A program made the translations under genes and the position numbers. From contig CAYJKM010000002.1 of NCBI GenBank assembly GCA_964370805.1, positions 1,599 to 65,598 on the forward strand: a stretch of 64,000 nt of DNA. The letters run 5' to 3'. The notes below the pieces were generated by a model. The model saw only the letters and a list, made by a program, of their open reading frames with translations. It was not told the origin of the DNA and searched no databases. Numbering within the stretch: the stretch's first letter is position 1; each line of letters begins with the position of its first letter. The stretch is from an uncultured Alphaproteobacteria bacterium (GTDB taxonomy: Bacteria > Electryoneota > RPQS01). Of the stretch, positions 27,234-62,045 are shown piece by piece.

Positions 27234-28979
27234 ATGAACAGCGAGCTCAAGGCGTCAATGGCAAACGTCGACAACGCGGGTACGACCCGTCTGCAATTCC
27301 ATTATCGCGTTAAAGTCGGCGTGACCGGCCACCGAGTTTTGCCGCAGGATAGTGAATTAGCGGGACGGATTCAGGATGTCCTTACCGACATCGAGCAGAT
27401 TGTCGGACCATCGGGCGGGGTTGCCATCCAATGGGAAATTCTCAGTTCGCTGGCAGATGGTGCAGATCGTCTTGTGGCCCGTGAAGTGCTGAAGCGAGGC
27501 GATGCGCGGCTGCGGGCTGTTATTCCGATGATGATCGCGGAATACAAAACAACGTTTGGTCTGGACGCTCATGGTAGTCCCATGTCAGACCGCTCAATCG
27601 AAGTCTCGCATCGAGAGTTCGATGAGTTGATCGCGGACTCTCGCACTCGCCCGGTCTTTCTTCATGGGAAACCGATTGCCGAGGATGCGGCACCCGCTGA
27701 GGCAACTCAAAAGGCACGTCACGACGCTTACCGCGAAGCAGGAGAATACATCCTGCGCCACTGTGATTTCCTGATCGCATTGGTTGATCCCAATCGTCCG
27801 AAGCGACGGGGTGGGACACATGACATCCTGGGCGAAGCTCGCAAGCTCCGCGTGCCGACGTATGTGATTGATCTCCGGCAGGCTCCGTTCCCCGTGCGGC
27901 GCAAACGATTGGGGCACTTCGACCACTCCGGAATTCGCGCCATCAACGCCTTTGCTGCCCCGGCCGTTCGCAAGGCTGGGAGCGAAACGGAATTTGACGA
28001 GTGGTTGCGGCCGTTCCGGAAATCGACGAGCGCAGATCTGAATGCGGAGTTGCTTATACAAGTTGAGAAGCGCCTGATCCCCTACTACACCAAAGCGTCG
28101 CAGCTGGCAAAGACCAATCAACACGCTTACCGCACAACCGGGATTGCCATCTATCTCTTTGCGATCGTCGCCATACTGCTGGTGACGGTTGGGGCGATGG
28201 TGGAGAAATGGAGTCTGGGATTCTTCACCGCTGAAGCCATCGCTCTTGCCGGAATTATCCTGCTGATTGGAGTGGCGCGCAAGCAGGGATACCACCGTCA
28301 ATGGATCACGTTGCGGTTTCTGGCTGAGCGCTTGCGTGCAGCATCTTTTCTAACCGCGGTTGGTGTTCGCCCGTCGCAGTTGCGCCGCGGCCCTGCGCCC
28401 ACGGGGATTGTGGCGCAATGTGACTGGACGGCTCACGTCTTCAATCGCATCATCGCTCAGGTGGTGTTTCCTATTTCCGGCGACGCGGCCCCGCTGGAGG
28501 CAAAACGACGGTTTATCACGGAGCAATGGCTGCGGGACCAACAACGCTGGCACCTTCGGAGAGCCGTAGAGCATATCGTGCGAAATCGCTGGTTCGAGAC
28601 TCTGGGGAGTCTCTTATTCTATGCGACTCTGATCACGGCCTTCGTGCACGCCATTGCACATATGGAATCAAGATTCCTGCGCCAATTCGCGACCCTGGCC
28701 GCACTTGCATTCCCTGCGATCGGCGCGGCCTTCAGCTGGTTCCGCAGCCACCGCGAATACGAACGACTCGCAACGCGCAGCCGAGAAATGTCGGATCAGC
28801 TCTTGGAGCTGGCATTTGAAGCGGACACCGCTACGGAGCAGAAACATGAATCCGACCGCGAGTCACCTCCGATGACGCAATTTGAAAACATCGTTCGGCG
28901 AATCGACGACATCATGCTGACTGAATCGCAGGACTGGCGTGGACTGGTTCGGTTTCTCAACGTGACCAAACCGCATTAA
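27234..28979 (+). CDS. SLOG-like (DprA/LOG-superfamily Rossmann) domain fused to a two-TM (SLATT-like) membrane effector domain
   Basis: 581 aa. The N-terminal roughly 230 aa has SLOG-like motifs (VGVTGHR, SSLADGADRLVAREVL, RRGGTHDILGEARKLRVPTYVI). Two adjacent TM helices at about aa 300-350 (IAIYLFAIVAILLVTVGAMV / FFTAEAIALAGIILLIGVA) are followed by a cytoplasmic C-terminal domain. Confidence 0.5.
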   Translation: MNSELKASMANVDNAGTTRLQFHYRVKVGVTGHRVLPQDSELAGRIQDVLTDIEQIVGPSGGVAIQWEILSSLADGADRLVAREVLKRGDARLRAVIPMMIAEYKTTFGLDAHGSPMSDRSIEVSHREFDELIADSRTRPVFLHGKPIAEDAAPAEATQKARHDAYREAGEYILRHCDFLIALVDPNRPKRRGGTHDILGEARKLRVPTYVIDLRQAPFPVRRKRLGHFDHSGIRAINAFAAPAVRKAGSETEFDEWLRPFRKSTSADLNAELLIQVEKRLIPYYTKASQLAKTNQHAYRTTGIAIYLFAIVAILLVTVGAMVEKWSLGFFTAEAIALAGIILLIGVARKQGYHRQWITLRFLAERLRAASFLTAVGVRPSQLRRGPAPTGIVAQCDWTAHVFNRIIAQVVFPISGDAAPLEAKRRFITEQWLRDQQRWHLRRAVEHIVRNRWFETLGSLLFYATLITAFVHAIAHMESRFLRQFATLAALAFPAIGAAFSWFRSHREYERLATRSREMSDQLLELAFEADTATEQKHESDRESPPMTQFENIVRRIDDIMLTESQDWRGLVRFLNVTKPH

Positions 28980-29316
28980 AGCAACTTTGCATGTTATTCC
29001 GGCGGAAGCCGGGAGTGTTTGGTAGTGAATCGCAAGAGAAGGACATCCGGCCGGGGATTGTCAGCAGATCGAGTTTAGGGTCTGAGATTTGACCAGATCA
29101 ACCTCGCGTACAATTGATGACGATCGAGAGCTTGCAGTAGGTGTTGCAGCTGAAAGTGAAGCGAGTCACGCAGTGCAGGCAGACCCGATGGCGATGCCGG
29201 CCCGCAGAGAAGTTCTCCAACAGAAAGCAAACGGCGGCAAGCAGGAGACCGTGCGATAGCCTCGGCGCCCATCATGATCATTTCAATGAACCGGCAGCGA
29301 GTTAAATTTCGAGGCC

Positions 29317-31728
29317 ATGAACAGCGAACAGCATAAACAATTTCTAACCAAGTACGCGCTTGAAAGAGGCGCGTATGCAGAGTTCGCGGCACAATTAGAG
29401 ACCATATTGGGCCGAGCAGCAAGCCTTTATGCTCCTCTGGCTGTCATTCAGACCCGTGCCAAGAGTCTCTCGAGCTTTTCTGAGAAGGCGGTGCGAAAAG
29501 GAGACAAGTATCGAGACCCGCTGCGCCAGATGACGGATCTGTGCGGGGCACGTGTGATCGTACATACGCTTGAGGAAGTGGATCGAATCTGTGAATTTAT
29601 CAAGGCGAATTTCGAGATCGACGAAACGAACAGCCTGGACCTGCGCACGCGACTGTCCGCAAGTGAATTCGGCTATCTCTCTGTGCACTACGTTGTTTCC
29701 CCGAAACGGGCGGAAATCCTGGGAGTGCCGATTCCGCCGGGGATCCGTGATCGAAAAGCGGAGATCCAGGTGCGAACCATTCTGCAGCATGCCTGGGCCG
29801 ATATCAGTCACGACCGGATCTACAAGAGCACGTTCAAAATCCCGGAGCGTTGGATCCGGGAATCCGCTCGCCTGGCTGCCGTCCTGGAAAATGCGGACGC
29901 CGCCTTTGCGCGGCTGACAAGCGTGATGGACGATCTTGCAGCCCATTACGGTGCTCTGCTGACGCAAGATGAGTTCGAGCAGGAGACAGACATTCTGAAA
30001 ACCGTGCTGGCAAATGAGCCGGATCCTGAGAACAGACCACGGATTGCTCTGCGTCTGGCACGGCTCTTTGCGGCCAGTGAACAGTGGTCGCGGGCAATCA
30101 CAGTTCTCGAGGAATATGTTGACAACCAGGCTTCAGTGTTGCCCCAGATGCAAAGCGAATTAGGCCGAGCTTACTGTGAGGCTCATCGGGGCCTACCCGA
30201 CCACGAACTGTTTCGCCGGGGAACATTGTTGCTGCGGGCGGCCGCGGAAAGACAGGCCGATCCGCTGCGTCCGTCAGGTGAAGATGCGAACAGTCTGCGG
30301 GCAGCATCCTTATCTTATCTTGCCAAGTCGTACCGGTACGCAGACAACCCGGCGACCGACATACGTGACGTGCTGCTCGAAGCTCACCGGCTGCACCCCG
30401 CTAATCCGTATTACTTTGCGGCGTTTATCGAGTCGGATATCATTGCCCGAGGCGACACCGCTTCACTGCCCTTGCTGGGAAATGCTATTGGCGCCGCAAT
30501 TCGTACGTGCCAGGAACACATCGAATTCGGATTAGAACTGCCCGAGGCGTTTTTCACGATTGGAAAACTTCGGATTCTCCTGCATCAGCCGTACCAGGCG
30601 CTAAGTGCCTATGCAAAGGCTGTGGATGTGAGCCGATCGGGCAAGAACCGTGTCTCAAGGGCCAAACTTCAGGATGAAATCGAACGTCTTCAGAGTCTTC
30701 AAACTTATCTGCCGCGTTCCGAAGCGTTAGAGTGGGCTTTGCGGTTCTTGCACGTTGCAGTGAAGGCGTTTTGTGATGCGCCGCAAAATGAAGGCACAAG
30801 CACAGCGACATCCTTGCCTGTCGTTTACCTTGCCGGGAGTCTTCAGCCGCCAGCGGGATATTCCGACAACTTCTACCGCGAGATGCTGGCGGCAGTATTT
30901 CACAAGTATGATGGGTTGCTGATTACGCCAGTGGCCATCCCGCCGGAGCATCTCGGTAAGCACCCGGTGCGCAAATGCGATGGAACGGTGCCCGAGATAC
31001 TGAGCATTCTGGCTGAGTTGGTTGACAGCGGCAACGCGGTGGCTAAAGTCCCAGTAATCTGTATCGGCGGCGACGCCAATGCGGCCGCGGCGTGTCACGT
31101 TGCCCTTGCACTGGGGGCAACGGTCGGCGCTGTCGCATCCAGCGGCGGAGCCGCTTCTAACTTGATGCACGACGACGACTGGCATGATCATGACCGGCTC
31201 CTGGCGCTTCCGCACGATCGCATGACGCTCTGGGCCTTTATTAATGCAAGCGGCAAGTCTCCCTGGACGGCGGCTCAACTTGAAGCTGCGGCGCGGAGCG
31301 TGCATGAGCACTATTTGCAAATGAGAACTGAGGGGCAGCCAGAGCTTTCGCTGGTCCCCTGGTCATTCTTGGACGAGTCCCTCAAGGAATCGAATCGGCA
31401 ACAAGTGCTGAACATGAGTCAAGCACTCGCATACGCGGGAGTCATTACTGATTTCGGCCGGCCATCAACATCTGTCCCGGAACTTACACCAGCGCAAGTG
31501 GAATTAGTTGCGGAACTGGAACATGGCCGCTGGAATGTGGAACGATTGAAGGATGGGTGGAGGCCTGGACCAAAGAAGGACATTGCCGGGAAAATCAGTC
31601 CTTACCTGGTGGGTTGGAAAGATCTCCCTGAACAGATCAAAGATTATGATCGAAATGCGGCCAGGCAGTTTCCGGCAATCGTCTCAGCGTCAGGCTTGGA
31701 AATCACGTACCCGGTTCCCCACACTTGA
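29317..31728 (+). CDS. RelA/SpoT-like nucleotide pyrophosphokinase (alarmone-synthetase fold) fused to TPR-like helical region, SLOG-like domain and C-terminal RyR domain
   Basis: 803 aa. The synthetase motifs RAKSLSSFSEKAVRK, DLCGARVIV and EIQVRTILQHAWADISHDRIYK lie at aa about 40-170. A helical TPR-like middle follows. A Rossmann-like VVYLAGS...VICIGGDANAAAACHVALALGATVGAVASSGGAASNL segment (SLOG/LOG-like) follows that. The C-terminal LAELEHGRWNVERLKDGW.PGPKKD..GKISPYLVGWKDLPEQIKDYDR matches the RyR domain consensus. Confidence 0.65.
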   Translation: MNSEQHKQFLTKYALERGAYAEFAAQLETILGRAASLYAPLAVIQTRAKSLSSFSEKAVRKGDKYRDPLRQMTDLCGARVIVHTLEEVDRICEFIKANFEIDETNSLDLRTRLSASEFGYLSVHYVVSPKRAEILGVPIPPGIRDRKAEIQVRTILQHAWADISHDRIYKSTFKIPERWIRESARLAAVLENADAAFARLTSVMDDLAAHYGALLTQDEFEQETDILKTVLANEPDPENRPRIALRLARLFAASEQWSRAITVLEEYVDNQASVLPQMQSELGRAYCEAHRGLPDHELFRRGTLLLRAAAERQADPLRPSGEDANSLRAASLSYLAKSYRYADNPATDIRDVLLEAHRLHPANPYYFAAFIESDIIARGDTASLPLLGNAIGAAIRTCQEHIEFGLELPEAFFTIGKLRILLHQPYQALSAYAKAVDVSRSGKNRVSRAKLQDEIERLQSLQTYLPRSEALEWALRFLHVAVKAFCDAPQNEGTSTATSLPVVYLAGSLQPPAGYSDNFYREMLAAVFHKYDGLLITPVAIPPEHLGKHPVRKCDGTVPEILSILAELVDSGNAVAKVPVICIGGDANAAAACHVALALGATVGAVASSGGAASNLMHDDDWHDHDRLLALPHDRMTLWAFINASGKSPWTAAQLEAAARSVHEHYLQMRTEGQPELSLVPWSFLDESLKESNRQQVLNMSQALAYAGVITDFGRPSTSVPELTPAQVELVAELEHGRWNVERLKDGWRPGPKKDIAGKISPYLVGWKDLPEQIKDYDRNAARQFPAIVSASGLEITYPVPHT

Positions 31729-31859: not shown

Positions 31860-32408
31860 ATGAAACCTCCGAAGACGGAAGGTTTATTCGACTATCCATT
31901 GCCGATCCCGCGTCACACGCTCTACGAAGAGCTGGGCCTGGGCCCCGAGGCGACGCCGGAAGAGATCCGGGAGGCCAAGGCTGAAGCCGTGCGGAAACTT
32001 CGTGCGCGCCGTGCAGCCATTCAGACGAGGATGGCGAGCCTGACCGCCGGTTCGCACCCCTCGCGAACGCAGCACGCAGAGCAAGAACAGCATGAGCGTG
32101 AGCTTCGACAGCTCCGCGCGGAGCACAAGAAGCTCGAGGAGCGGGAAGTGCAGATCAATACCATTGGCTTGGAATCCACTGAAAAGCGACGCCAGTACGA
32201 TGCGGAACATCCACCGCTCGCTCTGTTGAAACTCGCGCCGCCGGCGGGGGATGTGTTCAAAGATAATCGCCTCGTAATCGTTCTTCTGCGCCGGGAATTG
32301 TCAGCGTTTCTCCAGCAGCGCGGCATGGATGTGTTTCATCCCTCGGATCTGACACGCATCGATTTCACGTCTGACTTCACTTATTTTGAAATTCTGGACG
32401 GAGAATAG
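31860..32408 (+). CDS. Divergent J-domain-like protein (HPS instead of HPD), otherwise hypothetical
   Basis: 182 aa. N-terminal LYEELGLGPEATPEEIREAKAEAVRKL...SHPS resembles J-domain helices II and III but is non-canonical, with no Zn-finger or C-terminal domain. First gene of a tightly packed operon. Confidence 0.35.
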   Translation: MKPPKTEGLFDYPLPIPRHTLYEELGLGPEATPEEIREAKAEAVRKLRARRAAIQTRMASLTAGSHPSRTQHAEQEQHERELRQLRAEHKKLEEREVQINTIGLESTEKRRQYDAEHPPLALLKLAPPAGDVFKDNRLVIVLLRRELSAFLQQRGMDVFHPSDLTRIDFTSDFTYFEILDGE

Positions 32409-32411
32409 ATC

Positions 32412-33203
32412 ATGACGTCTCGAACGCCCAAAGCCGGTCGCAAGCGACCTTCTGCGGCCGGGAAGAAAGCCGGGCGCCTTGCCGGGGACAGACCGGATTC
32501 GCAAAACACGGCGACGAGTCTGCCTCTTGGCGGCGACTCAATCCCGTTGCCATCGGAACCTGAGATTTACCGGGTGGATGCGGCGGTGGTGGCTGAAAAG
32601 TATGCACACCGGCCACCGCGCGGTGATCACGGCTCAACCCGCTTCCCGTGGCGCGAGCACGTGCACCGGCTGGAAGCCGGCATCGAAGAAATGAACGATG
32701 ACATGCTTGTGCAGTTGAAGCAGCTGCAGGGACTTCAGTCACAGCTGTCAGAACTGTCGGAATTGGTGCATGCTCTGCGCGTGACGCATTTGAGCGAGTT
32801 GCGCAGCATGGCGATCTCGCTGGACAATCTCCGCCGCGATCTGATTTCCGAACGCCAGGCATTCTCGGCACGGAGCACGTTTAACGCCGTCCTGCCGTGC
32901 CTCGACTCGCTGATGCGGATGCAAAGTGCCGCCAACCGGAATTCGCAGTCCGAATTTGAAGCACAACTTGCCGCCACAGTAGACACACTGAGGCGAGCGT
33001 TAAGTGGGTTGGGATTTACAGAATTTACCTGCTCACCTGGAGAGCGATACGACCCCGTACTGATGGAATGCCTGGGTGAGGCGGACGGTGAGAACGGTGT
33101 TGTGCTTGCGATTGTCCGGCCCGGATACCGGGTCGGTACAATCATCGCTCGGCCCTGCGGAGTCTTGATCTCATGCTCATCAAACGAAACTGAAATCCAA
33201 TAG
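32412..33203 (+). CDS. GrpE-like nucleotide-exchange-factor homolog
   Basis: 263 aa. A basic disordered N-terminus, a coiled-coil middle, and a C-terminal beta-domain GENGVVLAIVRPGYRVGTIIARPCGVLIS resembling the GrpE C-terminal signature. Confidence 0.5.
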   Translation: MTSRTPKAGRKRPSAAGKKAGRLAGDRPDSQNTATSLPLGGDSIPLPSEPEIYRVDAAVVAEKYAHRPPRGDHGSTRFPWREHVHRLEAGIEEMNDDMLVQLKQLQGLQSQLSELSELVHALRVTHLSELRSMAISLDNLRRDLISERQAFSARSTFNAVLPCLDSLMRMQSAANRNSQSEFEAQLAATVDTLRRALSGLGFTEFTCSPGERYDPVLMECLGEADGENGVVLAIVRPGYRVGTIIARPCGVLISCSSNETEIQ

Positions 33204-33214: not shown

Positions 33215-35215
33215 ATGTGGCACACAGTCATTGGAATTGATTTGGGAACTACGTACAGTGCGGTGGCCTCCTATCATGCTGGTCAGGAACAGGCGATGTT
33301 GATTGAAGACCATAATGAAGGGAACGCACTGACCACCCCTTCCGTAGTGGGATGGGATTCCGGCGCCGGCAGAGTCATTGTGGGGCGAACCGCCCGACGA
33401 ACCGTTCGTGCATTGCAGAAGCCGATCATCGAAATCAAGCGTGAAATGGGAGAAGTATTCGATGAGAAGTTGCTCGACCGCTTTAATGCCCGCGGGGTGT
33501 ACAATGTCGGCGACCCGGTCCGCGTCTTCTTTGCCGGCGAATGGCTGCTGCCGCAGGAGATTAGTGCGTTCACGCTGACCCGAATGCGGCAGATTGCTGA
33601 ACAGGAACTCCGTACGGAGATCCGGGACGCGGTGGTCACGGTTCCGGCCTATTTTACCGACAAACAAAAGAGTGCGACATATGAAGCGGCGCTGCTGGCA
33701 GGACTGTACCCGCGGCAGTTAATCGCAGAGCCGACGGCGGCGGCAATCTGTTACGGCGTGGACACGTGGAACCCTGACCGTCGAGTCTACCTGGTCTACG
33801 ATCTGGGCGGAGGCACATTTGATGTTTCGATTATCGAGGTGGAGGGCGAGCGGATTGATGTTATTGCCACGTCGGGGGACCGCCGCCTGGGCGGCAGCGA
33901 TTTCGATAACGCCATTACCGAATGGGCCATGAACGAGCTGAAGCGGGATGGATTGGACGTGCTGCAGGTTCCCGCAGGCAGGGAACTGCTCAAGCAGGCC
34001 GCGGAAGAGGCCAAGATCCTTCTCAGCTCGTATCAAGAGACGAAGCTGAATCTGGCAGAAGTCTATCCCAATCGGCCGCCGCAACTCATTTTGACCCGCG
34101 AGAAATTCCTGGAGCTGATTAATGCGGACCTGCGAAAGTCCCTGAGCTTTGTCGATGACGCGTTGGAGCGTGCGCAACATAATCGCAATATTGCCCGCGA
34201 GGACGTCTCGGCAGTACTTCTGGTGGGTGGATCAACACGGATTCCTAAAGTCCGCGAGATGCTCGCCGAACATTTTCTCAAAGATGCATCATTTGTGCGA
34301 GCCGATGCGGATCCTGACGCCGTGGTGGCGCGTGGCGCGGCTGTCGTAGCCCACCGGTTTGAGCCCACGCCGCCACCCTTCGACATTACCCGGCCAACGG
34401 ACGACGCGTCGAATATTCGACTGGCGGATGACGGCTTGGTGATCGGGCTAATTACGGAGCATTCGCTCGGCGTCGGGACTGCTAACCACGATCTCGTGGA
34501 CAAGATCGTCACTCAGGGCACCAGTATTCCGGTCACGGTGACCAAGAGCGGCTACACCAATTCGGGCCAGGGAAGCTATACCATGGTTCCCGTTTGTCAA
34601 GGCGAAGGCGATTACCTGCCGCAGAACACCAAAATCGGTGAATTAAAAATTGGGCCTCACGCCGCGTCTCCACCGGGAACGCATCAGTTTGAAGTAACCT
34701 TTGCGTTGGACGTGAATGGACTTTTGACGGTGAGCGTTCGTCACATCAATGAGAACAAGACGTACACAGATCAATACGTTCGCAAGACCAGCGTCGGCGG
34801 CCTGGCCGCGCTGGTTCCGCTTTACAACCGCATCCTTCGTTATTATTTTGGAGCCGGAGGCGCCACTGATTTGAACCTTCCGCCGCCACAGCTTGATGAT
34901 CACCGAGCCCCAACCGATGACTCCACCACGCCGCGGGAAACTCCGCCCTATCCGGGCACGGAGGGCAAGAGTCTTCCACGTCCCGGGGCAGCAGCTTCAC
35001 CCACGCTTGTTGAGGTTTCCGGAAATGTCCCGGAAGCTTTCAAGAGCCTTGTGCGGCGATCCCAGAAACTTCTGCTGTCCAAACTGGATGTTCAACTCGC
35101 GGAGCGCTTTAATCGGTTTGTCAGTGCGCTGAATGCGAGTGCATCCAACGAGAAGCTGGAGGAACTGGCTGACGAACTTGAGGATGCCTATCACGATGCC
35201 CGCACGCAGTCCTGA
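33215..35215 (+). CDS. Hsp70 (DnaK-like) paralog, non-housekeeping
   Basis: 666 aa. NBD motifs IGIDLGTTYSAVA, DLGGGTFDVSI and LLVGGSTRIPKV are present. The SBD-beta is recognisable (CQGEGDYLPQNTKIGELKIG...EVTFALDVNGLLTVS). The canonical lid is replaced by a Pro-rich divergent C-terminus. Confidence 0.8.
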   Translation: MWHTVIGIDLGTTYSAVASYHAGQEQAMLIEDHNEGNALTTPSVVGWDSGAGRVIVGRTARRTVRALQKPIIEIKREMGEVFDEKLLDRFNARGVYNVGDPVRVFFAGEWLLPQEISAFTLTRMRQIAEQELRTEIRDAVVTVPAYFTDKQKSATYEAALLAGLYPRQLIAEPTAAAICYGVDTWNPDRRVYLVYDLGGGTFDVSIIEVEGERIDVIATSGDRRLGGSDFDNAITEWAMNELKRDGLDVLQVPAGRELLKQAAEEAKILLSSYQETKLNLAEVYPNRPPQLILTREKFLELINADLRKSLSFVDDALERAQHNRNIAREDVSAVLLVGGSTRIPKVREMLAEHFLKDASFVRADADPDAVVARGAAVVAHRFEPTPPPFDITRPTDDASNIRLADDGLVIGLITEHSLGVGTANHDLVDKIVTQGTSIPVTVTKSGYTNSGQGSYTMVPVCQGEGDYLPQNTKIGELKIGPHAASPPGTHQFEVTFALDVNGLLTVSVRHINENKTYTDQYVRKTSVGGLAALVPLYNRILRYYFGAGGATDLNLPPPQLDDHRAPTDDSTTPRETPPYPGTEGKSLPRPGAAASPTLVEVSGNVPEAFKSLVRRSQKLLLSKLDVQLAERFNRFVSALNASASNEKLEELADELEDAYHDARTQS

Positions 35216-55754: not shown

Positions 55755-56615
55755 GTGGGCATGCACATTCTCGCCGCGGCGCAAAGCAATTCCGGCAAGG
55801 TACGTGACCGGAACGAGGATTGTTTTCTTCTGGGTCGGTACGTGGAGCGAGCCGCCGCGATGAGCTTTGGCTTGTCCACGCAGGGCGACGTCTTTCAACG
55901 CTACGGCTTCATCGCCGCGGTCGCCGATGGCGTCGGCGGAGAACAAGGCGGGGCCGAAGCCAGCCGCATCGCGCTGGATACGCTGAGTAGTCTCTATTAC
56001 AGCGAAACCCGCGACCAAGTGACGGAAGAGGAAAGCGCGTCACTGCTGGAGCGGCTGCTTGCGCAAACGCAGGATTTATTGGTCAAAACACTGGCACGCG
56101 ACAACAAACTTGAGCGCGCGGCTACAACCATTGCCGGGATTGCGATGCTGCCCTGCGGAGCATGCGTCGTTTATCATGCCGGAGACACACGCGTACTGCG
56201 ATTGGCGGCCGGTTTTATGGATGCGTTGACGAGAGACCACTCGGTGGCCGCAGCCGTGATTGAGAGCGGCCAACTGACGGAAGAGCAGGCGCTGGGACGC
56301 CCGGACGCCCGGCATCTGACGAGCGCGATGGGTTCCGGCGGACACTTTAACCCGGAGATTAATGCCCGCTCCCGCTTTGTGCCGGGGGACCGACTGCTGC
56401 TCTGCACGGATGGCATCTACACGTATTCCGGACCGTTGTCCAAAGAGACGCTGAAAGGCATCCTGCAGCGGCCGGTTTCGCCAACGGAAGTGGTTGCAGA
56501 GTTGATCGCGGCTGCGCATGACGTCAGCCGGGATAATTTGACGGCACTGGTGATTGATTTTGCCGAGAGTGAACGCGGCAACGCGTTACTCGTCAAGGGC
56601 ACCATAACTAAGTGA
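55755..56615 (+). CDS. PP2C-family Ser/Thr phosphatase
   Basis: 286 aa. GKVRDRNED, FIAAVADGVGGEQGG, and LLLCTDGI motifs. Confidence 0.75.
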   Translation: MGMHILAAAQSNSGKVRDRNEDCFLLGRYVERAAAMSFGLSTQGDVFQRYGFIAAVADGVGGEQGGAEASRIALDTLSSLYYSETRDQVTEEESASLLERLLAQTQDLLVKTLARDNKLERAATTIAGIAMLPCGACVVYHAGDTRVLRLAAGFMDALTRDHSVAAAVIESGQLTEEQALGRPDARHLTSAMGSGGHFNPEINARSRFVPGDRLLLCTDGIYTYSGPLSKETLKGILQRPVSPTEVVAELIAAAHDVSRDNLTALVIDFAESERGNALLVKGTITK

Positions 56616-56631: not shown

Positions 56632-59118
56632 ATGGCCGATGCCAGACCCGGTTCCGGCGATGACAAGACCCGGCAAGTAACAGGGACATCTGCAGACGAA
56701 AGGCGGATGACGATCGATGCCGCTCGTCACACTCGCGAGGTCGGTGGCGGCCGCGCCGGTGCGCTCACAGTTCAGGTTGCCGGGTCCGGCGCTGCCCGGC
56801 GCGGCAAGTTGCTGGAGTACCGCAGCGGCGATGTCATTGACGGCAAGTATAAAATCTGGGAGACCGTGCGGTTTCACGATGCCGTCCATGCCGGGATTTA
56901 TTTCTGCACCGTTCAAGCGGGTGAGCTTGCAGGGCGGCGCGTCGTCTTGAAAGTGCATGGCCGCGACCGCGCTCCCGATCCGCAGCTGCTCGAGCGCGTG
57001 CAACGGCTCGCCGTGGACGACATCGTGCGAGTTTACGATGCCTTCGAATTGGAAGGCAACGTCGCGGAATTGATTGAGTATTGCGAAGGTGGGCCGGTGT
57101 CTCATTATGCGGCTGATTCGCCGCAGGTGCGCGGCCTGTCTGGCGATTTGCCCTGTGAGCCGCTGACGGAGGGACGAATCATCGAGGAAATCGTGCCGGA
57201 AGTCAACAATGCATTGGGGCTGCTGCACGAAGCCGGAATCGTTCATCGCGACATCAAACCGGATAACATTTTCTTTCGGCGTTTCGAGACCGTGAATGGG
57301 CGGCGCCGGGGCCGTGACGTCGTGATCGGCGATTTTGACATTTCCTACGCGCTCGGTGAAGACACAACGTCGCGCATCACGAGTTTAGGCGCCTTCACCG
57401 ACAAGTACTTGCCGCCCGAAAGTTTCATCCACTACTTCACTCCGGACGGAAAATCCGCGGGCTGGCGCGTGAGTCGCGAAATGGACTACTATGCGCTCGG
57501 AATCACCATTCTGGAACTGCTGGGCATCCCGATTTTTCGCGGCATGGATTACAATTCCATCGCAAAGTTCTACACCAGTGAACGACTGACGATTCCCCAA
57601 CAGTTTTCGCAGCGCTTGCGCGTGTTGCTGCAGGCCCTGTTGCTGCGCGATTATCGGCGGCGCTGGACCGCCAAACAAGTGGCACTGTGGGCGCGCGGAG
57701 AACTTAACGAAGCTCCGGCCGAGACCTGGGTGCCGATGGAGCAGGGACTCAAGCCGCGCCGGTATCAGGGCCGTGATTGCAGAACGTTTGCCGACATGGC
57801 GGCGGTGATGGACACGAATCCCGATGCGGCCATCAAAGACTTGATGGAGCAGGCGTGGGTCGAGGGTTGGGTCGCAGATGTGGACATGGATCGCGCGGCA
57901 CAGATCCGTGACGCTAAAGAGCGCTTTCGACATCAGCCGCCCTTGGTGCTGCTGGCCACGCGCTTGATTCTGGATCCGTTGACGCCCTTGGCGCTCACCG
58001 GCGGAAAGTCGGTTTCGTCGCCACCGGAGTTCTCGGCATTCGCGGGAGAAGGCCGCTGGTCCGGTACTCCCTGGCAGGCCGCCTTTGAAGCCTTTGAAAG
58101 CGGACGTCTGGAAGTCTGGCTGGAGTACAGTGCGAATGGTTCGCCGGAATTGGCACGACGCATCCGCGAACTGCGCAAGCAGTCGCGCGACCACCATCAC
58201 CTGCTTGAAGAAGCGCTGTACATTTGTTATCCACATCGGCCATACTTCTTCCAACCCGGCCGTCCGGCGGAGACCCCGGAACAATTAGCCGAACTGATCT
58301 TGGGCTCGGAGTCCGATTGGTCACGGTCCGGCAACGACCTGCCCGCGTGCTATCAGGAAGGACTGAAGCAAGTCAAAGAGGGTCGGCCGCTGGGCTGGTT
58401 GCGCGTGAACTATCATCATCTGCACGAGCAATACGCGCAGTTACTCAGCGCTTCCGAGGATGAGATCCTGCTGCTCGAATCGTTTCTCCGTCAATGCAAG
58501 CCGGACTTGCCGCTGCTCGACATTACGTTGACTCTACCAACTGCCGTATCCGGCGAGTGGTCCGTCGCTCATGGCCGCGAAGATGAGCAGCTCATTGCGT
58601 GCCGCACCTCGGGACGCGGCGTTCCGGCGGTTTCGCTGACTCTGGAGCATCCGGACACCGTGTTGCTTGCGGAAACGGTTTCGATTCGGGAACGGCAAGC
58701 GCAGATCCGGCTGCGCGTTAACGCCCGGCACAACGACGTGAAAGCAAACTACACGGCTCGTAATCAGCTTCACTTTGCGTCTGTCAATTGCCGCATTGAC
58801 GGACAGGCTGCGCCGTTCGCGCTTCCGCTGCGTTATCGTGTCACCTACCCATTTTTGAAGTCTCTGGCTGTGCTGGTGACGTGGGCCGCCGGCGGTGCGG
58901 CGGCGCTGGGATTGCTGCGGCTGATGATCACCGGCATTTCCGGACCCGGTTGGCTGTTTGAAGACAAGTCGCGTCTGCTCGATATCGATAAACTGTACGA
59001 CACGATCTACGGCGAAGCCTTCGTCGGAGTGCAGATTGAGTACTTCTTCTACCTGATTCTGCTCACGGCCATGGTGTATATGTTCATTCGAGTTCGGCGG
59101 CGACTGGTCAAGACATAG
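56632..59118 (+). CDS. Hanks-type Ser/Thr protein kinase with large C-terminal region and two C-terminal TM helices
   Basis: 828 aa. VVLKV (VAIK-like), HRDIKPDNIFF catalytic loop, IGDFDISYAL (a DFD variant), and APE-like region. The C-terminus has hydrophobic helices (AVLVTWAAGGAAALGLL / YFFYLILLTAMVYMFI). Confidence 0.7.
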   Translation: MADARPGSGDDKTRQVTGTSADERRMTIDAARHTREVGGGRAGALTVQVAGSGAARRGKLLEYRSGDVIDGKYKIWETVRFHDAVHAGIYFCTVQAGELAGRRVVLKVHGRDRAPDPQLLERVQRLAVDDIVRVYDAFELEGNVAELIEYCEGGPVSHYAADSPQVRGLSGDLPCEPLTEGRIIEEIVPEVNNALGLLHEAGIVHRDIKPDNIFFRRFETVNGRRRGRDVVIGDFDISYALGEDTTSRITSLGAFTDKYLPPESFIHYFTPDGKSAGWRVSREMDYYALGITILELLGIPIFRGMDYNSIAKFYTSERLTIPQQFSQRLRVLLQALLLRDYRRRWTAKQVALWARGELNEAPAETWVPMEQGLKPRRYQGRDCRTFADMAAVMDTNPDAAIKDLMEQAWVEGWVADVDMDRAAQIRDAKERFRHQPPLVLLATRLILDPLTPLALTGGKSVSSPPEFSAFAGEGRWSGTPWQAAFEAFESGRLEVWLEYSANGSPELARRIRELRKQSRDHHHLLEEALYICYPHRPYFFQPGRPAETPEQLAELILGSESDWSRSGNDLPACYQEGLKQVKEGRPLGWLRVNYHHLHEQYAQLLSASEDEILLLESFLRQCKPDLPLLDITLTLPTAVSGEWSVAHGREDEQLIACRTSGRGVPAVSLTLEHPDTVLLAETVSIRERQAQIRLRVNARHNDVKANYTARNQLHFASVNCRIDGQAAPFALPLRYRVTYPFLKSLAVLVTWAAGGAAALGLLRLMITGISGPGWLFEDKSRLLDIDKLYDTIYGEAFVGVQIEYFFYLILLTAMVYMFIRVRRRLVKT

Positions 59119-59126: not shown

Positions 59127-60026
59127 ATGCAGCCCTGGTTCTGGTTAGAATGTTATGTGCAAGGGTTTCGCCTGGCGCTGCGGACGCCGACCTTTCCGCT
59201 GATTGCTGTGATCTCCGTCGTTACGGGCAAGTACGGCGAGGAGCGAATTCTGGGGGCGCTGGCGCAACAACAACTGTCCTTTGCCGGGATGAGCTGGGTG
59301 GAGATTGTGCGCTGGATCCAGCACCCGCCGCCGGCCGTCGTCGCGCAGCTGGCGCCGCTGCTCGTTCTGGGGCTGGGTTTGATGCTCGTGGCCGGCGGGA
59401 ATAATCTGGGTCTCATGGGAATCATCCGCGATTATCTGGTACGGCGGGTGTATCGTTTGCGCGACGTGGCAAGCTGGGCCGTGCGAGTGCTCGTGCCGGT
59501 GTTGCTTTACCGCGTGTGGCTCGCAGTGTTTCTGACGGTCGCCGCCCTGCTTTGCTTGGCGCTGTTTGCGGGTGTCTATTTCGCCAGCGGTCGCCATGCA
59601 TGGACGGTTTGGCTGGCCGCCACCCTCCCCGCTGCGGCGGTTTTGGTTGCTTATCGTATCTACGTTTCCATGGGATCAAAAGCGGTGATCGTCCTCGGCA
59701 TCCATCGGCCGCAAATGCTGCTCCGAATTTGCTCGCGGCTGACATCCGCCTATCCTGCGCAAGTCATTCCCTTCTACGCAAGTATGTGGCTGCTGTTTGC
59801 AATCGTGGCCGCGGCCGGATACGTGTCCGTGCGCTATTGGCATCTTCCGCTCTGGGTGATCTGGTCGGTCGTGATCACCGCGGGAGCGCTTGGCACTGCT
59901 GCGCTGAAATCGGCCGGTCTGCTTTTCTTCATGAAGTTGTGCGAGGATTCCCCCCATCTCGTCGCGGACGTGCCGCCGGCATCGGCTCGTCCGGCGTCCG
60001 CATCTCCACTCGACCCGGTCTCCTGA
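59127..60026 (+). CDS. Polytopic membrane protein, hypothetical
   Basis: 299 aa with 6 or more predicted TM helices. No motif recognised. Confidence 0.4.
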   Translation: MQPWFWLECYVQGFRLALRTPTFPLIAVISVVTGKYGEERILGALAQQQLSFAGMSWVEIVRWIQHPPPAVVAQLAPLLVLGLGLMLVAGGNNLGLMGIIRDYLVRRVYRLRDVASWAVRVLVPVLLYRVWLAVFLTVAALLCLALFAGVYFASGRHAWTVWLAATLPAAAVLVAYRIYVSMGSKAVIVLGIHRPQMLLRICSRLTSAYPAQVIPFYASMWLLFAIVAAAGYVSVRYWHLPLWVIWSVVITAGALGTAALKSAGLLFFMKLCEDSPHLVADVPPASARPASASPLDPVS

Positions 60027-60049: not shown

Positions 60050-61930
60050 ATGGAAGATTGTCTCGGCTCGGGATTTGGCGTAGTGATTGTCATTGGCTTA
60101 GTCATTGCCGCAATCTACTGGGCGGTTAAGCTGCTGCTCATGTTGCTGGCCGGCATCTGGGCGGTCATCATTGCCATTTCGGTTAACTTGGTGTCGGGTG
60201 TAGACTGGGTGCTGTGTCTCGCCAGCGGCATGCATCCGGCTGTCGCCTGGGCACTTGTTGGCGCTGCTGTCGCTCTGATCTGGGGTATTCGCGAGGCCTT
60301 TCGCATCTATCATTTCAAGCAATGGCTGCCGGTGCTTGCGTTCGTACCGCTGGTCGTTGTCGTTCTGGTTCGCTTCGCCGTCGGCGTGACGGTGCCGGCT
60401 GATCGCGCGGGCGTGCTGCTCGAAAAGGGTGAGTACGAACAGCTGATCGCGCAATTCGGTTCGGACTCAAGCGCGGCCCGATCCGTTCGCACGGCGCGAG
60501 ACACGCTGGCCGCGCGCCTGTTCGCCGCCGGAGAATATCAGAAAATTGTCGAAGCGTGGGCAGGCACCAGTGTGGCTCCGGCGGCACGAGACTGTGTCGC
60601 GACGCGGCTGCTGCGTGCGGGAAACCTGACGGAAGCGGCGGCCAAGTTTGCCGACACTCCGTCCGGGGCCACGGCCAGAAACCGGATCGCGGATGATCAT
60701 CTCAAGCGCGGCAACGTTGACCTGGTCCTGCGCGAGTATATGCAAACCCCTGCCGGCGCCAAGGCCGTACAGAGTGTTCGGCGTTTGTTTCGACCCGGCA
60801 GCGTATGGGAAGGCCGCATCGCTTACGATCCTCAGTTCAAGCGGCCCGGAGAGCAGTTACATATCAAGATCACCTCGGCTAAGGGACTCAGTTTTACTGG
60901 GGTGAGTTCTTACGGCAATAGCGGCAATTACACGTGCAGCGTAAACTTCAGCGGCAGTTTCAAAGACAGCAACCACTTCATTTTTGTCAATAACCAGCGC
61001 GTAACGGGCAACTGCATGATTCCTTGCACATACGATGGATCGGCCTTGGCGTCTTCCCTTAACGGCCGATGGAGCTGTCCGTCGTTTTCAGGTACGTTCG
61101 AACTGATGCTGCGCAAAGGACAAAAAGCCGAAGCTGAGGGAGCCCTGATATCCTCGGACTCGACGGTCTCAGGCCAGCAGGCAAGCGTGTTGGACAGCGC
61201 CGCGACCGGGGAGCAGGAAAGTGGTGCAACTCAGGAAGCCGCGGCGGGCAACAACGTATTGGTGCTTGGCGGCAGCGGATCTTATGTCTCCATCCCACAC
61301 ATCTCTCCCTACGATTTGCGTTCGTCCATGACGATTGAGGCTTGGGTGTACCTGAAGAGTTATGGGGACTGGCGAGGAGTGGTCACAAAAGGCACGCAAT
61401 GGGGTGTGTATTCGATGCGGCTGGCAAAACACCGCATCAACTTCTATCTTAATGACGGTCGGTCTGATCGCTGTTCCGCCTCGTCAAATCGCGAGATTCC
61501 TCTCAAGCAGTGGCACCATTGGGCGGTGACATACGATCAAGGAGCTATGAAGGTTTACGTAGACGGGGAATTGGACGGCAGTGTCACCTGCACAAAACCA
61601 ATCCACAATAACAGCGAAGCGCTGATCCTGGGAGCAGACTTGCCCGAAGGCGACGAGTATCTGCACGGCGAAATTGACGACGTTTGCTTGTGGTCCGTCG
61701 TTCGCTCGGCAGAGGAAATCAAGCAGGACATGACCGGGATGCCGACGGGATCGAACAAGAATGTGGTAGGATTATGGCGCTTCGACGATGACACCGACTC
61801 AGGGGTGGCCGTAGATGGCTCGCGCTTCAAAAATATTGGCAGGGGGCATCGGGCTCAGATCACAGCCCCGCAAGCGACTCGACCGGTCAATCTCCGCGCT
61901 GCCAATCCAATTACATCCCCGACCAAATAG
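60050..61930 (+). CDS. Membrane protein with helical (TPR-like) region and C-terminal LamG-like (concanavalin-A-like lectin) jellyroll domain
   Basis: 626 aa. Three to four N-terminal TM helices. The C-terminal segment SMTIEAWVYLKS...WHHWAVTYDQGAMKVYVDGELDGS...GEIDDVCLWS matches the Laminin_G_3 pattern. Confidence 0.55.
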   Translation: MEDCLGSGFGVVIVIGLVIAAIYWAVKLLLMLLAGIWAVIIAISVNLVSGVDWVLCLASGMHPAVAWALVGAAVALIWGIREAFRIYHFKQWLPVLAFVPLVVVVLVRFAVGVTVPADRAGVLLEKGEYEQLIAQFGSDSSAARSVRTARDTLAARLFAAGEYQKIVEAWAGTSVAPAARDCVATRLLRAGNLTEAAAKFADTPSGATARNRIADDHLKRGNVDLVLREYMQTPAGAKAVQSVRRLFRPGSVWEGRIAYDPQFKRPGEQLHIKITSAKGLSFTGVSSYGNSGNYTCSVNFSGSFKDSNHFIFVNNQRVTGNCMIPCTYDGSALASSLNGRWSCPSFSGTFELMLRKGQKAEAEGALISSDSTVSGQQASVLDSAATGEQESGATQEAAAGNNVLVLGGSGSYVSIPHISPYDLRSSMTIEAWVYLKSYGDWRGVVTKGTQWGVYSMRLAKHRINFYLNDGRSDRCSASSNREIPLKQWHHWAVTYDQGAMKVYVDGELDGSVTCTKPIHNNSEALILGADLPEGDEYLHGEIDDVCLWSVVRSAEEIKQDMTGMPTGSNKNVVGLWRFDDDTDSGVAVDGSRFKNIGRGHRAQITAPQATRPVNLRAANPITSPTK

Positions 61931-62015
61931 ACGTGACAAAAGGTCATAGACGATTGTCCACAACCACATTTGGCGTCGTTGGCCATGAAGCATTGATGAT
62001 GAGATTTTGGCGTAA

Positions 62016-62045
62016 GTGCAGTCGGAAGGTCCGGCTGCACTTTTT
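62016..62045 (+). terminator. Rho-independent terminator after the LamG-domain gene
   Basis: GTGCAGTCGGA-AGG-TCCGGCTGCAC (11-bp stem including one G-U pair, 3-nt loop) followed by TTTTT at 62041-62045. Confidence 0.6.

Follow-up and report, generated by a model that had tools for sequence, protein, structure and literature searches.

Apparently undescribed gene cassettes, possibly of conflict type, around an Hsp70 paralogue with a TIR protein and an Hsp100-like unfoldase with a radical-SAM enzyme in an uncultured bacterium

Introduction

Chaperone- and NTPase-gated conflict systems, some of them with HSP70 and GrpE, were predicted by Kaur, Burroughs, Iyer and Aravind (eLife 2020; PMC7159879). 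In the GAP1-N2 DO-GTPase systems of that study, HSP70 and GrpE occur with DnaJ- or TPR-fused partners, and inactive kinase domains are common (PMC7159879). The detection of a phage coat protein by bNACHT25 of Escherichia coli depends on the host DnaJ (Conte et al., PLoS Biol 2025; PMC12169576), and the role of the bacterial DnaK paralogues is an acknowledged open question (2026 review; PMC13580251). The present analysis concerns positions 27234 to 62045 of a stretch of 64,000 nucleotides (nt) from an uncultured bacterium (assembly GCA_964370805.1, contig CAYJKM010000002.1), which is called the window throughout. This island of genes encodes an Hsp70 paralogue with its own GrpE-like and J-like partners and a TIR protein (module B), an Hsp100-like unfoldase with an NrdG-like radical-SAM enzyme and a set of phosphosignalling proteins (module C) and, upstream of both, a SLATT membrane protein and a RelA/SpoT-RyR protein (module A).

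A threonine-phosphorylation pathway of the type VI secretion system (T6SS), consisting of the kinase PpkA, the PP2C phosphatase PppA, Fha1 and ClpV, was reportedly described by Mougous and coworkers in 2007. TerY-P, a defence system of vWA, PP2C and Ser/Thr kinase proteins, is said to go back to Gao and coworkers (2020), and SLATT/SLOG nucleotide-signalling effectors are said to go back to Burroughs and coworkers (2015). Hsp70 systems and ClpB-type unfoldases cooperate in canonical disaggregation. To our knowledge, viperin-like enzymes are so far the only radical-SAM enzymes that have been tied to defence.

Results

Conservation and independence of the cassettes

By spacing, the genes of the island fall into three transcription-unit-like blocks, namely module A (27234-31728; two genes, loosely arranged), module B (31860-45422; tight) and module C (46295-61930; tight). 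Modules B and C were never found together in 25 other loci (designated by L numbers), module B being present without C in 14 and module C without B in 11. This points to independent cassettes that lie side by side, as they do in defence islands, and contradicts the initial annotation of the window, in which one multi-component system of two coupled operons had been proposed. We read the stretch as three separately inherited, apparently undescribed cassettes of conflict type (anti-phage, anti-plasmid or abortive-infection) and give this reading an even chance of being correct. The defence function itself is what we infer from the domains, the patchy distribution and the neighbouring genes.

The gene order of module B (INDEPENDENCE) is fixed: J-like protein, GrpE, Hsp70, pseudokinase-TPR protein, membrane TPR protein, 82-amino-acid (aa) protein, TPR protein, TIR-propeller protein and giant TPR protein. 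Conserved neighbourhoods of the Hsp70 paralogue across genomes had been named as a check in the initial annotation, and the nine-gene cassette was indeed recovered, strictly colinear, in 14 other loci, which were obtained from scans of genome and metagenome collections and from contigs encoding Hsp70 relatives. All nine genes are present in the same order in eight of these (L001, L004, L012, L019, L024, L025, L110 and L111), and six more are colinear up to the contig ends (L002, L013, L015, L017, L018 and L020). Variation was seen in no more than three respects: L111 has an M48 peptidase gene ahead of the TIR gene, L002 and L025 have an additional truncated Hsp70 upstream, and some loci have module A. 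Identities to the window range from 25-32% for g09, the fastest-evolving member, to 47-56% for Hsp70. The source metagenome-assembled genomes (MAGs) are labelled Deltaproteobacteria, Planctomycetaceae, KSB1 and Thermoanaerobaculia, and at least four phyla are represented. Full-length relatives of the Hsp70 paralogue g05 (at least 120; identity 43-56%) came without exception from metagenomes or MAGs. In an exhaustive search of 1.84e9 cluster representatives, the g07 family had 214 representatives at E <= 1e-3 and 119 at E <= 1e-30. So rare and patchy a distribution suggests a unit that probably moves horizontally rather than a housekeeping cluster; a known developmental or housekeeping locus, which the initial annotation had held out as the competing explanation, does not agree with only 214 representatives in 1.84 billion.

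Module C was followed by means of its unfoldase g17, which has at least 120 full-length relatives (identity 37-49%) among 8000 candidates, a pool that includes generic Clp/AAA proteins. In 12 genomic contexts, the window included, g17 is accompanied by a radical-SAM enzyme in 11 (scored if adjacent or within 10 kb), by a kinase in 10, by an FHA protein in 9, by PP2C in 7, by a HerA/FtsK-type ATPase in 4 and by a DUF4011 superfamily 1 (SF1) helicase in 2. The gene orders differ, for example between an Aristaeella plasmid (L029) and a contig from a viral collection (L030), and this shuffling argues for functional rather than merely inherited linkage. Module C of the window is of an extended type shared with L010 and L112, in which HerA precedes the core, with a small beta-rich protein in front of it and with an HExxH protein and a small transmembrane (TM) protein behind it; in the window, YidD, a TM-LamG protein and a polytopic membrane protein are found in addition. 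In L112, a full vWA-PP2C-kinase triad adjoins the core. Relatives of module C are located on conjugative and other plasmids. On the conjugative plasmid pRLgr12_2 of Rhizobium leguminosarum (L026, 11476-17736), the AAA-radical-SAM pair is directly followed by a single protein of 2086 aa, which is a fusion of kinase, DUF4011, SF1 helicase (AAA_11/AAA_12) and REase_MTES_1575 nuclease. Neighbours of conflict or mobile type around the related loci are NACHT with WD40 (L024), GHKL ATPases (L004), TPR-CHAT (L010), TIR-nSTAND1 (L112), HigB (L027), IS21 (L022) and a Macro domain with an FtsK-type ATPase (L030).

Gene content of the modules

The initial annotation had described a non-metabolic, conflict-type domain content, and the island does encode domains typical of prokaryotic conflict systems (Table 1). 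Pfam supports its calls of a RelA/SpoT synthetase and of RyR (both in 29317-31728), of HerA-like, Clp-like and radical-SAM proteins and of an FHA/PP2C/Ser-Thr kinase triad (DUF87, AAA_2, Fer4_12, FHA, PP2C_2 and Pkinase), as well as the Hsp70 and GrpE members of its private chaperone set, the J-like member of which was recognised with a profile of six orthologues and lacks HPD. The two-TM SLATT-like effector passes the cut-off of NCBIfam SLATT_1 (NF033634; 43.8 against 41 bits) and lies just under that of Pfam SLATT_1 (1.8e-5; 25.2 against 26.3 bits). The TIR call holds, the catalytic Glu being invariant, and the pseudokinase call agrees with a match to the B-Raf kinase C-lobe (E 2e-4, profile search) and with the loss of the catalytic residues. 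Of the multiple giant TPR proteins, the one in 38814-40601 is clearly a TPR protein, and TPR matches elsewhere are weak.

In module B, the six-orthologue profile of g03 matched J domains of DNAJA1 at E 0.002-0.007 and Pfam DnaJ at 0.025; the match is limited to helices I and II of the J domains, and the canonical HPD between helices II and III is absent. The GrpE-like protein g04 exceeds the Pfam cut-off (1.2e-10; 41.8 against 25.8 bits) and falls far under the cut-offs of all NCBIfam GrpE models. The Hsp70 paralogue g05 matches profile positions 1-491 of 599 of Pfam HSP70 (3.5e-106) and retains the phosphate loops and the motifs of the beta substrate-binding domain. The lid part (492-599) is unmatched; in its place, g05 has a Pro-rich linker and a C-terminal helix that is specific to the family (…DELEDAYHDAR). 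Against the DnaK equivalog models, g05 scored 345.6 and 344.1 bits with cut-offs of 648 and 822. In the pseudokinase g06, the invariant columns comprise a G-loop-like G49/G54/V56, Arg67 in the place of the catalytic Lys and MP[SA]D in the place of HRD, with no DFG. No Pfam or NCBIfam match was obtained for g06, and a word-index homologue search returned only g06 itself; its family members were recovered by tblastn in the related loci. The hydrophobic segments of g07 cover residues 9-27 and 88-106, and its TPR matches are weak. The small protein g08 occupies the same position in every locus that extends to it. The giant protein g11 reaches about 1586 aa in other loci, with N-terminal 140 aa that are up to 50-55% identical. 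A Walker A or P-loop motif was found in none of g03-g11.

A profile of 11 orthologues of g10 matched TIR structures at 1e-9 to 1e-7, including the NAD+ hydrolase AbTIR (2.5e-8), and, in residues 320-450, beta-propellers, both designed and of PQQ type (1e-11 to 1e-5). All 11 sequences have the catalytic Glu, E87, in a W/Y-E-L motif. We predict g10 to be the effector of module B and a likely NAD+-using enzyme.

Two further observations were made on loci related to module B. An otherwise identical contig (L005, ENA ERZ13693047) carries nine substitutions within 80 bp of g07 (window 37054-37132), two of which make stops; they are likely assembly noise (coverage about 6.8x), and a real disrupted allele is possible. 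A Terracidiphilus MAG (L003, 2124-11415) contains a different Hsp70-centred cluster, in which three tandem Hsp70 paralogues are followed by a ClpB-D2-like AAA protein of 847 aa.

In module C, the AAA+ unfoldase g17 has a first tier without Walker A (none in residues 1-340) and a complete second tier with Walker A and B, a GYVGY pore loop and the sensor and finger arginines, all in invariant columns. An IGF-type loop for docking to ClpP was not visible in g17. The NCBIfam ClpB, ClpA and ClpV models matched at 4e-78 to 2.5e-67, all far under their cut-offs (ClpB 263.7 against 1232 bits, ClpV 227.9 against 885, ClpA 228.3 against 993). The AlphaFold2 (AF2) model of g17 has a predicted local distance difference test score (pLDDT) of 88.9, and Foldseek aligned 550-730 of its columns to ClpC, ClpB and ClpA protomers at E values of about 1e-32 to 1e-26. 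By the model and the motifs, only the second ring of g17 is predicted to work as a complete threading motor. The first ring contains an invariant D78-G79 between the modelled strands E70-75 and E79-82.

The radical-SAM enzyme g18 is closest to the glycyl-radical activases and scores under the NCBIfam cut-offs (NrdG 80 against 126 bits, 1.7e-22; PflA 42 against 232 bits). Its CxxxCxxC (C31, C35, C38), GGEP and WRGSDNQ motifs are invariant in six orthologues. RVQGY, the sole match of g18 to RVxG[FWY], was considered as a glycyl-radical site and rejected, as it is not conserved. The PP2C phosphatase g20 has its metal-binding motifs, as read from the sequence. The kinase g21 has HRD and, in the place of DFG, DFD, and it contains a long region without assigned family; its PADLOC matches were mad6 (3e-24), MkoA (1.5e-21) and PD-T4-6 (1e-17). 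Weak homologues of g16 are encoded directly upstream of the AAA gene in L010, L011, L021 and L022.

Regarding the other members of module C, the HerA/FtsK-type ATPase g13 keeps both Walker motifs (Walker A, GTTGSGKS) and matches PADLOC HerA models and mad8 at 1e-15 to 1e-8 (mad8 2e-15) and NCBIfam CedD at 1e-15. It has orthologues in L010 (34%) and L112 (29%), and an FtsK_SpoIIIE protein takes its place in L030. Positional analogues of g12 before HerA in L010 (217 aa) and L112 (165 aa) share a GDxI…GT(L/I)…R.F pattern, as judged by eye. L010 also has analogues of g14 (287 aa, HEKLH) and of g15 (a small TM protein of 88 aa). No family match was found for g14 and g22 in Pfam, PADLOC and NCBIfam. 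At the position of g23, which is a candidate ligand sensor, other loci have SH3, Gly-zipper or small TM proteins.

Side observations on module C relatives were as follows. The Geminocystis sp. NIES-3708 plasmid pGM01 (L027, 1-10974) carries a co-oriented array of a g18-type radical-SAM gene (annotated '4Fe-4S single cluster domain'), two DO-GTPase genes, a HigB toxin pair, a g17-type AAA gene and several unknown genes; by adjacency only, this array connects the AAA-radical-SAM pair with the DO-GTPase systems of PMC7159879. The IMG/VR contig UViG_3300029489_000263 (L030, 3336-20233), which is classed as viral by that collection, encodes FtsK_SpoIIIE, DUF5685, radical-SAM, kinase, FHA, g17-type AAA, Sel1-repeat and Macro-domain proteins. 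DUF5685 is found in extended module C of L010 (6919-8067; Cys-rich tail CRGCCGRGC…) and L030 (7348-8190), and no DUF5685 was detectable in the window. In a scan of viral records, the radical-SAM profile mostly matched over residues 19-150 or so, and only one contig (L030) has the g17 family; we take these short matches to be ordinary phage NrdG-type activases.

Module A is built more loosely. The N-terminus of g01 has conserved GVTGHR, LAxGADRLxA and GGT motifs. The protein g02 matches Pfam RelA_SpoT (6.7e-18) and RyR (2.4e-13) as well as PADLOC PDC-S33 (5.4e-16), and its synthetase motifs are intact by direct reading of the sequence. The best PDB match of its RyR domain is a ryanodine-receptor-1 chimera (6uhi, 2.8e-19), followed by the RyR repeats of RyR1-3 at 6e-11 or weaker. 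The two regions proposed as SLOG-like gained no support: a Pfam search at E <= 5 gave only Nuc_deoxyrib_tr (E 0.17), a PDB profile search with three orthologues gave no match, and hhalign detected no relation of the two regions to each other; the single-sequence AF2 model of the candidate region had a pLDDT of 36, and the fold was not obtained. The RyR protein and a g01-type SLATT protein adjoin module B in three of the nine loci with at least about 5 kb of upstream flank, namely the window, L001 and L025, where full-length g01 orthologues stand next to the RyR protein and the Hsp70 cassette. The RyR protein follows or precedes the g01-type gene, and its enzymatic head varies (RelA/SpoT in the window, an AAA domain in L001). 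We read module A as an optional accessory of module B.

Table 1. Genes and terminator of the island, with positions in the window.
Feature	Position	Strand	Product	Evidence and remarks
g01	27234..28979	+	581-aa SLATT membrane protein	N-terminal domain without assigned fold, four hydrophobic segments, C-terminal SLATT 2TM effector domain
g02	29317..31728	+	803-aa RelA/SpoT-type nucleotide pyrophosphokinase	helical/TPR-like middle, alpha/beta region without assigned family, C-terminal RyR
g03	31860..32408	+	182-aa J-like co-chaperone	always first cassette gene; conserved R..YD and C-terminal (F/Y)HP(S/T)D
g04	32412..33203	+	GrpE-like nucleotide exchange factor	long basic N-terminal extension
g05	33215..35215	+	Hsp70 paralogue	ATPase domain and beta substrate-binding domain intact
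g06	35196..36704	+	pseudokinase with helical-repeat region	open reading frame open from 35133; gene call uses 35196
g07	36701..38545	+	membrane-anchored helical-repeat (TPR-like) protein	acidic C-terminus GEFLLxEEE; cassette marker family
g08	38542..38790	+	82-aa protein	core INHExEY, acidic C-terminal tail PEPDDxDxxE
g09	38814..40601	+	595-aa TPR protein	Pfam TPR_19 9.6e-11, TPR_16 6.4e-9
g10	40631..42364	+	TIR, beta-rich middle, PQQ/'Cake'-type beta-propeller	Pfam TIR_2 8.1e-14
g11	42345..45422	+	giant helical-repeat protein, 1025 aa	last cassette gene; weak TPR matches
YidD	46295..46543	+	YidD-like membrane-protein insertion efficiency factor, 82 aa	Pfam YidD 3.4e-19; overlaps g12 by 10 nt
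g12	46534..47034	+	166-aa beta-rich (OB-like?) protein	precedes HerA; weak DUF5666, 0.0017
g13	47018..49927	+	969-aa HerA/FtsK-superfamily ATPase	Pfam DUF87 2.4e-10
g14	49932..50774	+	280-aa charged protein with HExxH motif (HEFRH)	motif search
g15	50771..51121	+	116-aa protein	three hydrophobic segments
g16 (core)	51144..52535	+	N-terminal anchor, long coiled coil, small, conserved C-terminal domain (…LGYEV…)	TM 5-23
g17 (core)	52532..54568	+	two-tier Hsp100/ClpB-type AAA+ unfoldase	Pfam AAA_2 1e-49 plus ClpB_D2-small
g18 (core)	54565..55230	+	NrdG-like radical-SAM enzyme	Pfam Fer4_12 6.7e-26; family-specific C-terminal extension of about 70 aa
g19 (core)	55249..55752	+	zinc-ribbon and FHA phosphothreonine reader	Pfam FHA 1.2e-9, DZR 1.5e-4
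g20 (core)	55755..56615	+	PP2C phosphatase	Pfam PP2C_2 2.7e-11; PADLOC PDC-M21C 2e-9
g21 (core)	56632..59118	+	828-aa Ser/Thr kinase	Pfam Pkinase 7.2e-23; two C-terminal hydrophobic segments
g22	59127..60026	+	299-aa polytopic membrane protein	five hydrophobic segments
g23	60050..61930	+	three N-terminal TM segments, helical region, Laminin_G_3 (concanavalin-like)	Pfam Laminin_G_3 7.4e-33
Intrinsic terminator closing module C	about 62014-62048	+		13-bp stem then UUUUU, -21 to -23 kcal/mol, z -3.7

Layout and flanks of the island

The island consists of 24 tightly packed genes on the + strand (27234-61930), which form a series of open reading frames (ORFs) without break and include two genes for proteins of 82 aa (38542-38790 and 46295-46543). 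The unbroken run that the initial annotation had described is thus present, with 24 genes counted instead of 25. Both of its tight operons are likewise found, the second starting at 46295 with the YidD-like gene and not at 46534. Within module B, genes are separated by 3-29 nt or overlap by 4-20 nt, small gaps or overlaps of this size are also present within module C, and between the two tight blocks lies a gap of 0.9 kb with a fragment of an OmpR-type DNA-binding domain and a weak hairpin. The single strand does not mark the island, as had been supposed: every large ORF over positions 1-62000 is on the + strand, and co-orientation is therefore uninformative. The GC content of the island (0.54-0.62) is the same as that of the flanks, and the upstream gap said to be AT-rich is AT-richer only mildly (GC 0.542). 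The clean terminator reported at 62016-62045 was recovered as the hairpin with U5 listed in Table 1, which was missed by a consensus terminator scan. As the initial annotation had stated, there is no tRNA, no integrase-like match and no direct repeat flanking the island; an Rfam scan gave no match to an RNA family at the island.

A strong 12-bp hairpin (z -4.7; window 27151-27195, + strand) is followed by a short spacer and a U-run and ends about 40 nt before the SLATT start codon at 27234; it could be a terminator of the upstream transcript or a leader or attenuator of module A. In the gap between modules B and C, an ORF of 87 aa (45638-45901, + strand) matches only the first 29 positions of an OmpR/PhoB-type DNA-binding domain (Trans_reg_C, 6.8e-5) and looks like the remnant of a response-regulator gene. 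An ORF of 237 aa on the minus strand (61855-62568), which extends over the terminator and the last part of g23 and has no family match, is unlikely to be a gene.

The genes upstream of the island belong to anaerobic-type acyl-CoA and aromatic catabolism and to molybdenum-cofactor synthesis. Positions 1-26280 (+ strand) encode an HGD-D-type dehydratase or reductase component, an AMP-ligase, enoyl-CoA hydratases and a three-part molybdenum hydroxylase, as well as MoaA, MoaC, MoeA, MOSC and TauE; they form a cluster for the anaerobic catabolism of acyl-CoA or aromatic compounds that includes the genes for its cofactor. Several ENA metagenome assemblies contain contigs identical to the window, and the nearest relatives in the genome collections have identities of only 48-53%.

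Discussion

Proposed mechanisms

The schemes outlined here start from the observed domain identities, the state of the catalytic motifs and the conservation and independence of the cassettes, and to these they add proposed contacts, a trigger, an order of events and a role in defence. The enzymes other than the pseudokinase and the first AAA ring keep their catalytic motifs.

In module B, the helical-repeat proteins g07, g09 and g11 together with the pseudokinase g06 and the small protein g08 may serve as scaffold and sensor for the TIR-beta-propeller protein g10, and the private Hsp70 cycle (g03, g04 and g05) would spend ATP on controlling the assembly state of the g10 complex. At rest, Hsp70 would hold the TIR protein dispersed or unassembled. 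As a trigger, an invader protein might bind to the TPR or propeller surfaces, which are variable, or the chaperone might be titrated by its clients. The TIR domains would then come together and either cleave NAD+ or produce a signal derived from NAD, and growth arrest would follow. Where module A is present, it might supply a downstream or parallel membrane (pore) effector and an alarmone-type effector.

In module C, the membrane Ser/Thr kinase with membrane partners such as the LamG protein would phosphorylate a target, the resulting phosphothreonine mark would be read by the FHA protein and erased by PP2C, and this phospho-switch would gate or recruit the single-motor unfoldase, which may work with the NrdG-like radical-SAM enzyme. 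The output would vary by genome, with a HerA-type pump and the HExxH protein here and a DUF4011 helicase-nuclease elsewhere.

A bolder version of these schemes can be formulated. Module B would be a 'guarded chaperone' sensor, in which an invader engages or titrates the Hsp70 and J-like proteins and thereby frees the TIR-propeller protein, whose NAD product opens the SLATT protein and activates the RelA/SpoT-RyR protein in a three-tier cascade; module C would be the first defence system with an unfoldase-fed, phospho-controlled radical-SAM modification of proteins. We regard this version as a long shot.

Weighing of the alternatives

Several points weigh against a conflict function. No known defence-system model matches beyond single domains, and the evidence from neighbouring genes is anecdotal. 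The island has no GC anomaly, integrase, tRNA or flanking repeats that would indicate recent acquisition; relatives of g07 were absent from the plasmids and viral contigs searched, and the N-terminal half of g17 had no relatives in phage records. A TIR domain can also be no more than an interaction module, and helical repeats with a dedicated Hsp70 suit structural or developmental assembly equally well. The proposed link between modules A and B is drawn from three loci and from a sensor domain that is unverified. Finally, Pfam found no glycyl-radical partner of NrdD or PFL type in the window, and some hosts of the AAA-radical-SAM pair are aerobic (Rhizobium, Caballeronia), which argues against an oxygen-labile glycyl radical.

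The main rival to the conflict reading is a dedicated cell-envelope or assembly machinery. Module B would then carry out the chaperone-assisted assembly of a membrane TPR/beta-propeller complex, comparable to the GrpS-SglK Hsp70 pair of Myxococcus (exopolysaccharide, social motility), and module C a phospho-regulated trans-envelope export or envelope signalling, comparable to PpkA/PppA/Fha1/ClpV of T6SS or to FtsK-type EssC with FHA in type VII secretion. The composition of the modules lends itself to this, module B being made up mostly of scaffold proteins and one membrane anchor, and module C having YidD, at least five membrane proteins, a HerA/FtsK-type pump and a LamG domain of extracytoplasmic type. 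The quartet of kinase, PP2C, FHA and Clp-type ATPase is the T6SS regulatory set, and g17 scores about equally against ClpV (2.5e-67) and ClpB. That the role of DnaK paralogues is acknowledged as open (PMC13580251) also leaves room for such a machinery. However, no island protein has a Pfam match to TssB/C, Hcp, VgrG or WXG100, and the very sparse, cross-phylum distribution is unlike lineage-specific cell biology. The TIR protein retains its catalytic Glu, and the relatives of module C occur on plasmids, fused or adjacent to helicase-nuclease effectors, often with conflict genes as neighbours. With regard to the Myxococcus comparison, none of the best 120 Hsp70 relatives comes from a named isolate or is called SglK. 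We consider a cell-biological machinery unlikely, though it is an alternative to be taken seriously.

The core of module C could also be a system of regulated protein repair or modification that belongs to a stress response, in which the unfoldase feeds protein to the radical-SAM enzyme (for cross-linking, epimerisation or formation of a glycyl radical) and the kinase, FHA and PP2C proteins time the reaction. Most constant of all is indeed the AAA-radical-SAM pair itself, with only a kinase fusion beside it in L026; the similarity of g18 to activases, the invariant D78-G79 in the dead first ring of g17 and the DUF5685 proteins with Cys-rich tails in L010 and L030 would fit as well. Neither a conserved glycyl-radical motif nor a small substrate gene conserved across loci was seen, the hosts include aerobes, and the nuclease, helicase, TIR-STAND and CHAT neighbours fit a conflict function better, so that we hold this explanation to be improbable.

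That the whole 35 kb is one integrated system, possibly an Hsp70-Hsp100 bi-chaperone immune machine, is very unlikely indeed: its genes are contiguous and co-oriented with an Hsp70 set and a ClpB-type unfoldase in the same island, module A travels with B in three loci, tandem Hsp70 paralogues precede an AAA protein in L003 and an AAA_2 protein lies upstream of module B in L111, but co-orientation holds for the whole window, the operons are parted by the gap with the regulator-gene fragment and hairpin, the AAA proteins of L003 and L111 lie outside the g17 family (the alignment is confined to D2 in L003, and no match was obtained in L111), and modules B and C each occur without the other.

Significance

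If three cassettes of conflict type are indeed present, module B provides a concrete hypothesis, namely that an Hsp70 cycle gates an immune-type NADase, as an Hsp70 paralogue with its own GrpE-like and J-like partners is tied to a TIR domain predicted to be catalytically intact. Module B would then have its counterpart in plants and animals, whose TIR/NLR receptors depend on chaperones for their maturation and control, and would extend the finding of phage sensing mediated by host DnaJ. The pair of an Hsp100-like unfoldase and an NrdG-like radical-SAM enzyme is widespread, plasmids included. The coupling of this pair to FHA/PP2C/kinase and to HerA or helicase-nuclease proteins defines a family with cultured hosts in Rhizobium, Aristaeella and Dethiobacter. 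Should both cassettes prove to be cell-biological machines, these would still be new.

Comparison with known systems

The initial annotation had recognised no named defence system in the island, and the comparison with models of known systems agrees. PADLOC matches were limited to the domain level (PDC-S33, PDC-S66, HerA, mad6/mad8, PDC-M37B, PDC-M21C and PD-T4-6), and all NCBIfam scores were far under the cut-offs save for the SLATT domain model. No description of either cassette architecture was found by full-text searches of the literature.

Several memberships were considered and rejected. The chaperone set is not the housekeeping DnaK-DnaJ-GrpE system, as Hsp70 scores under the DnaK cut-offs and the J-like protein lacks HPD, the GrpE feature being present. 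Membership of g18 in the glycyl-radical-enzyme activases (NrdG/PflA) fails on the equivalog cut-offs and the missing partner enzyme, with CxxxCxxC and GGEP present, and that of g17 in ClpB, ClpV or ClpA fails on the lack of an active D1, of the N- and M-domains of these families and of an equivalog score, with two tiers and the full D2 motor present. HerA pairs (SIR2-HerA, DUF4297-HerA) were rejected on the score against antiphage HerA NF042943 (30.6 against 800 bits) and for want of SIR2 or DUF4297. Membership in Thoeris, the DO-GTPase/GAP1 systems and T6SS was rejected in each case on at least one defining feature.

Module A shares with SLATT/SLOG and toxSAS/CapRel-type systems a SLATT 2TM domain and a RelA/SpoT synthetase with intact motifs. 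It differs from the former in that no SMODS/CD-NTase partner was found by Pfam and PADLOC, and from the latter in the fusion of the synthetase to RyR and in that no antitoxin-like protein or CapRel C-terminal sensor was detected.

The kinase-based defence systems TerY-P, PD-T4-6/Stk2-type and MADS resemble module C in using a Ser/Thr kinase and PP2C as signalling parts, but none of them contains the pair of Hsp100-like unfoldase and radical-SAM enzyme. TerY-P was rejected, as Pfam found no VWA match in the window, and so was MADS, as the island has no methyltransferase and no BREX-like genes, with only domain matches to mad6 and mad8 (NCBIfam MAD6 52 against 460 bits).

Thoeris is resembled by module B in a TIR protein with intact catalytic Glu, which is the likely NAD+-using component by its residues, and, in three loci, in a possible separate effector, the SLATT protein of module A, whose N-terminus is nucleotide-sensor-like, its SLOG nature being unverified. 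Unlike in Thoeris, the TIR domain is fused to a beta-propeller and lies inside a chaperone/TPR operon, and no island protein matches ThsA, SIR2 or Macro in Pfam and PADLOC; g10 itself scored marginally against PADLOC ThsB (E 0.0045) and reached 18 against 220 bits for NCBIfam ThcB4. With bNACHT25, module B would share an Hsp70-system chaperone network in a guard-type, indirect sensing of invaders, which for module B is proposed by analogy. In contrast to bNACHT25, which consists of one STAND protein and makes use of the housekeeping DnaJ, module B encodes its own Hsp70, GrpE-like and J-like proteins and no STAND NTPase.

The GAP1-N2 DO-GTPase systems share with module B a dedicated HSP70, GrpE and J/TPR-type partner in a multi-gene operon and, like other systems of PMC7159879, constant regulators with variable repeat proteins, TIR effectors and membrane association. 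Module B differs from DO-GTPase/GAP1 systems in having no GTPase, no Pfam match to DO-GTPase or GAP1 and no FNIII or tubulin component (the same Pfam models detect the DO-GTPases of L027 and none in the window), and its fixed nine-gene order is not described in PMC7159879. In concept, and by analogy, module B may work like these systems, with an ATP-driven threshold on the deployment of the effector.

For module C, the T6SS threonine-phosphorylation pathway would be the closest mechanistic analogue. At the domain level, the four protein types of that pathway (kinase, PP2C, FHA and ClpB-family AAA+) recur in the core of module C, and a shared logic, by which a phospho-FHA interaction recruits the unfoldase, is plausible by analogy. 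In contrast to T6SS, Pfam detects no structural genes (TssB/C, Hcp, VgrG, baseplate) in the island and the flanking genes, the first ring of g17 is dead, a ClpV-type N-domain is missing from g17, the radical-SAM enzyme is an obligatory partner, and the outputs are HerA/FtsK pumps or helicase-nucleases. Taken together, the two conserved cassettes, B and C, appear to be new forms of chaperone- or NTPase-gated conflict systems, a class that is known.

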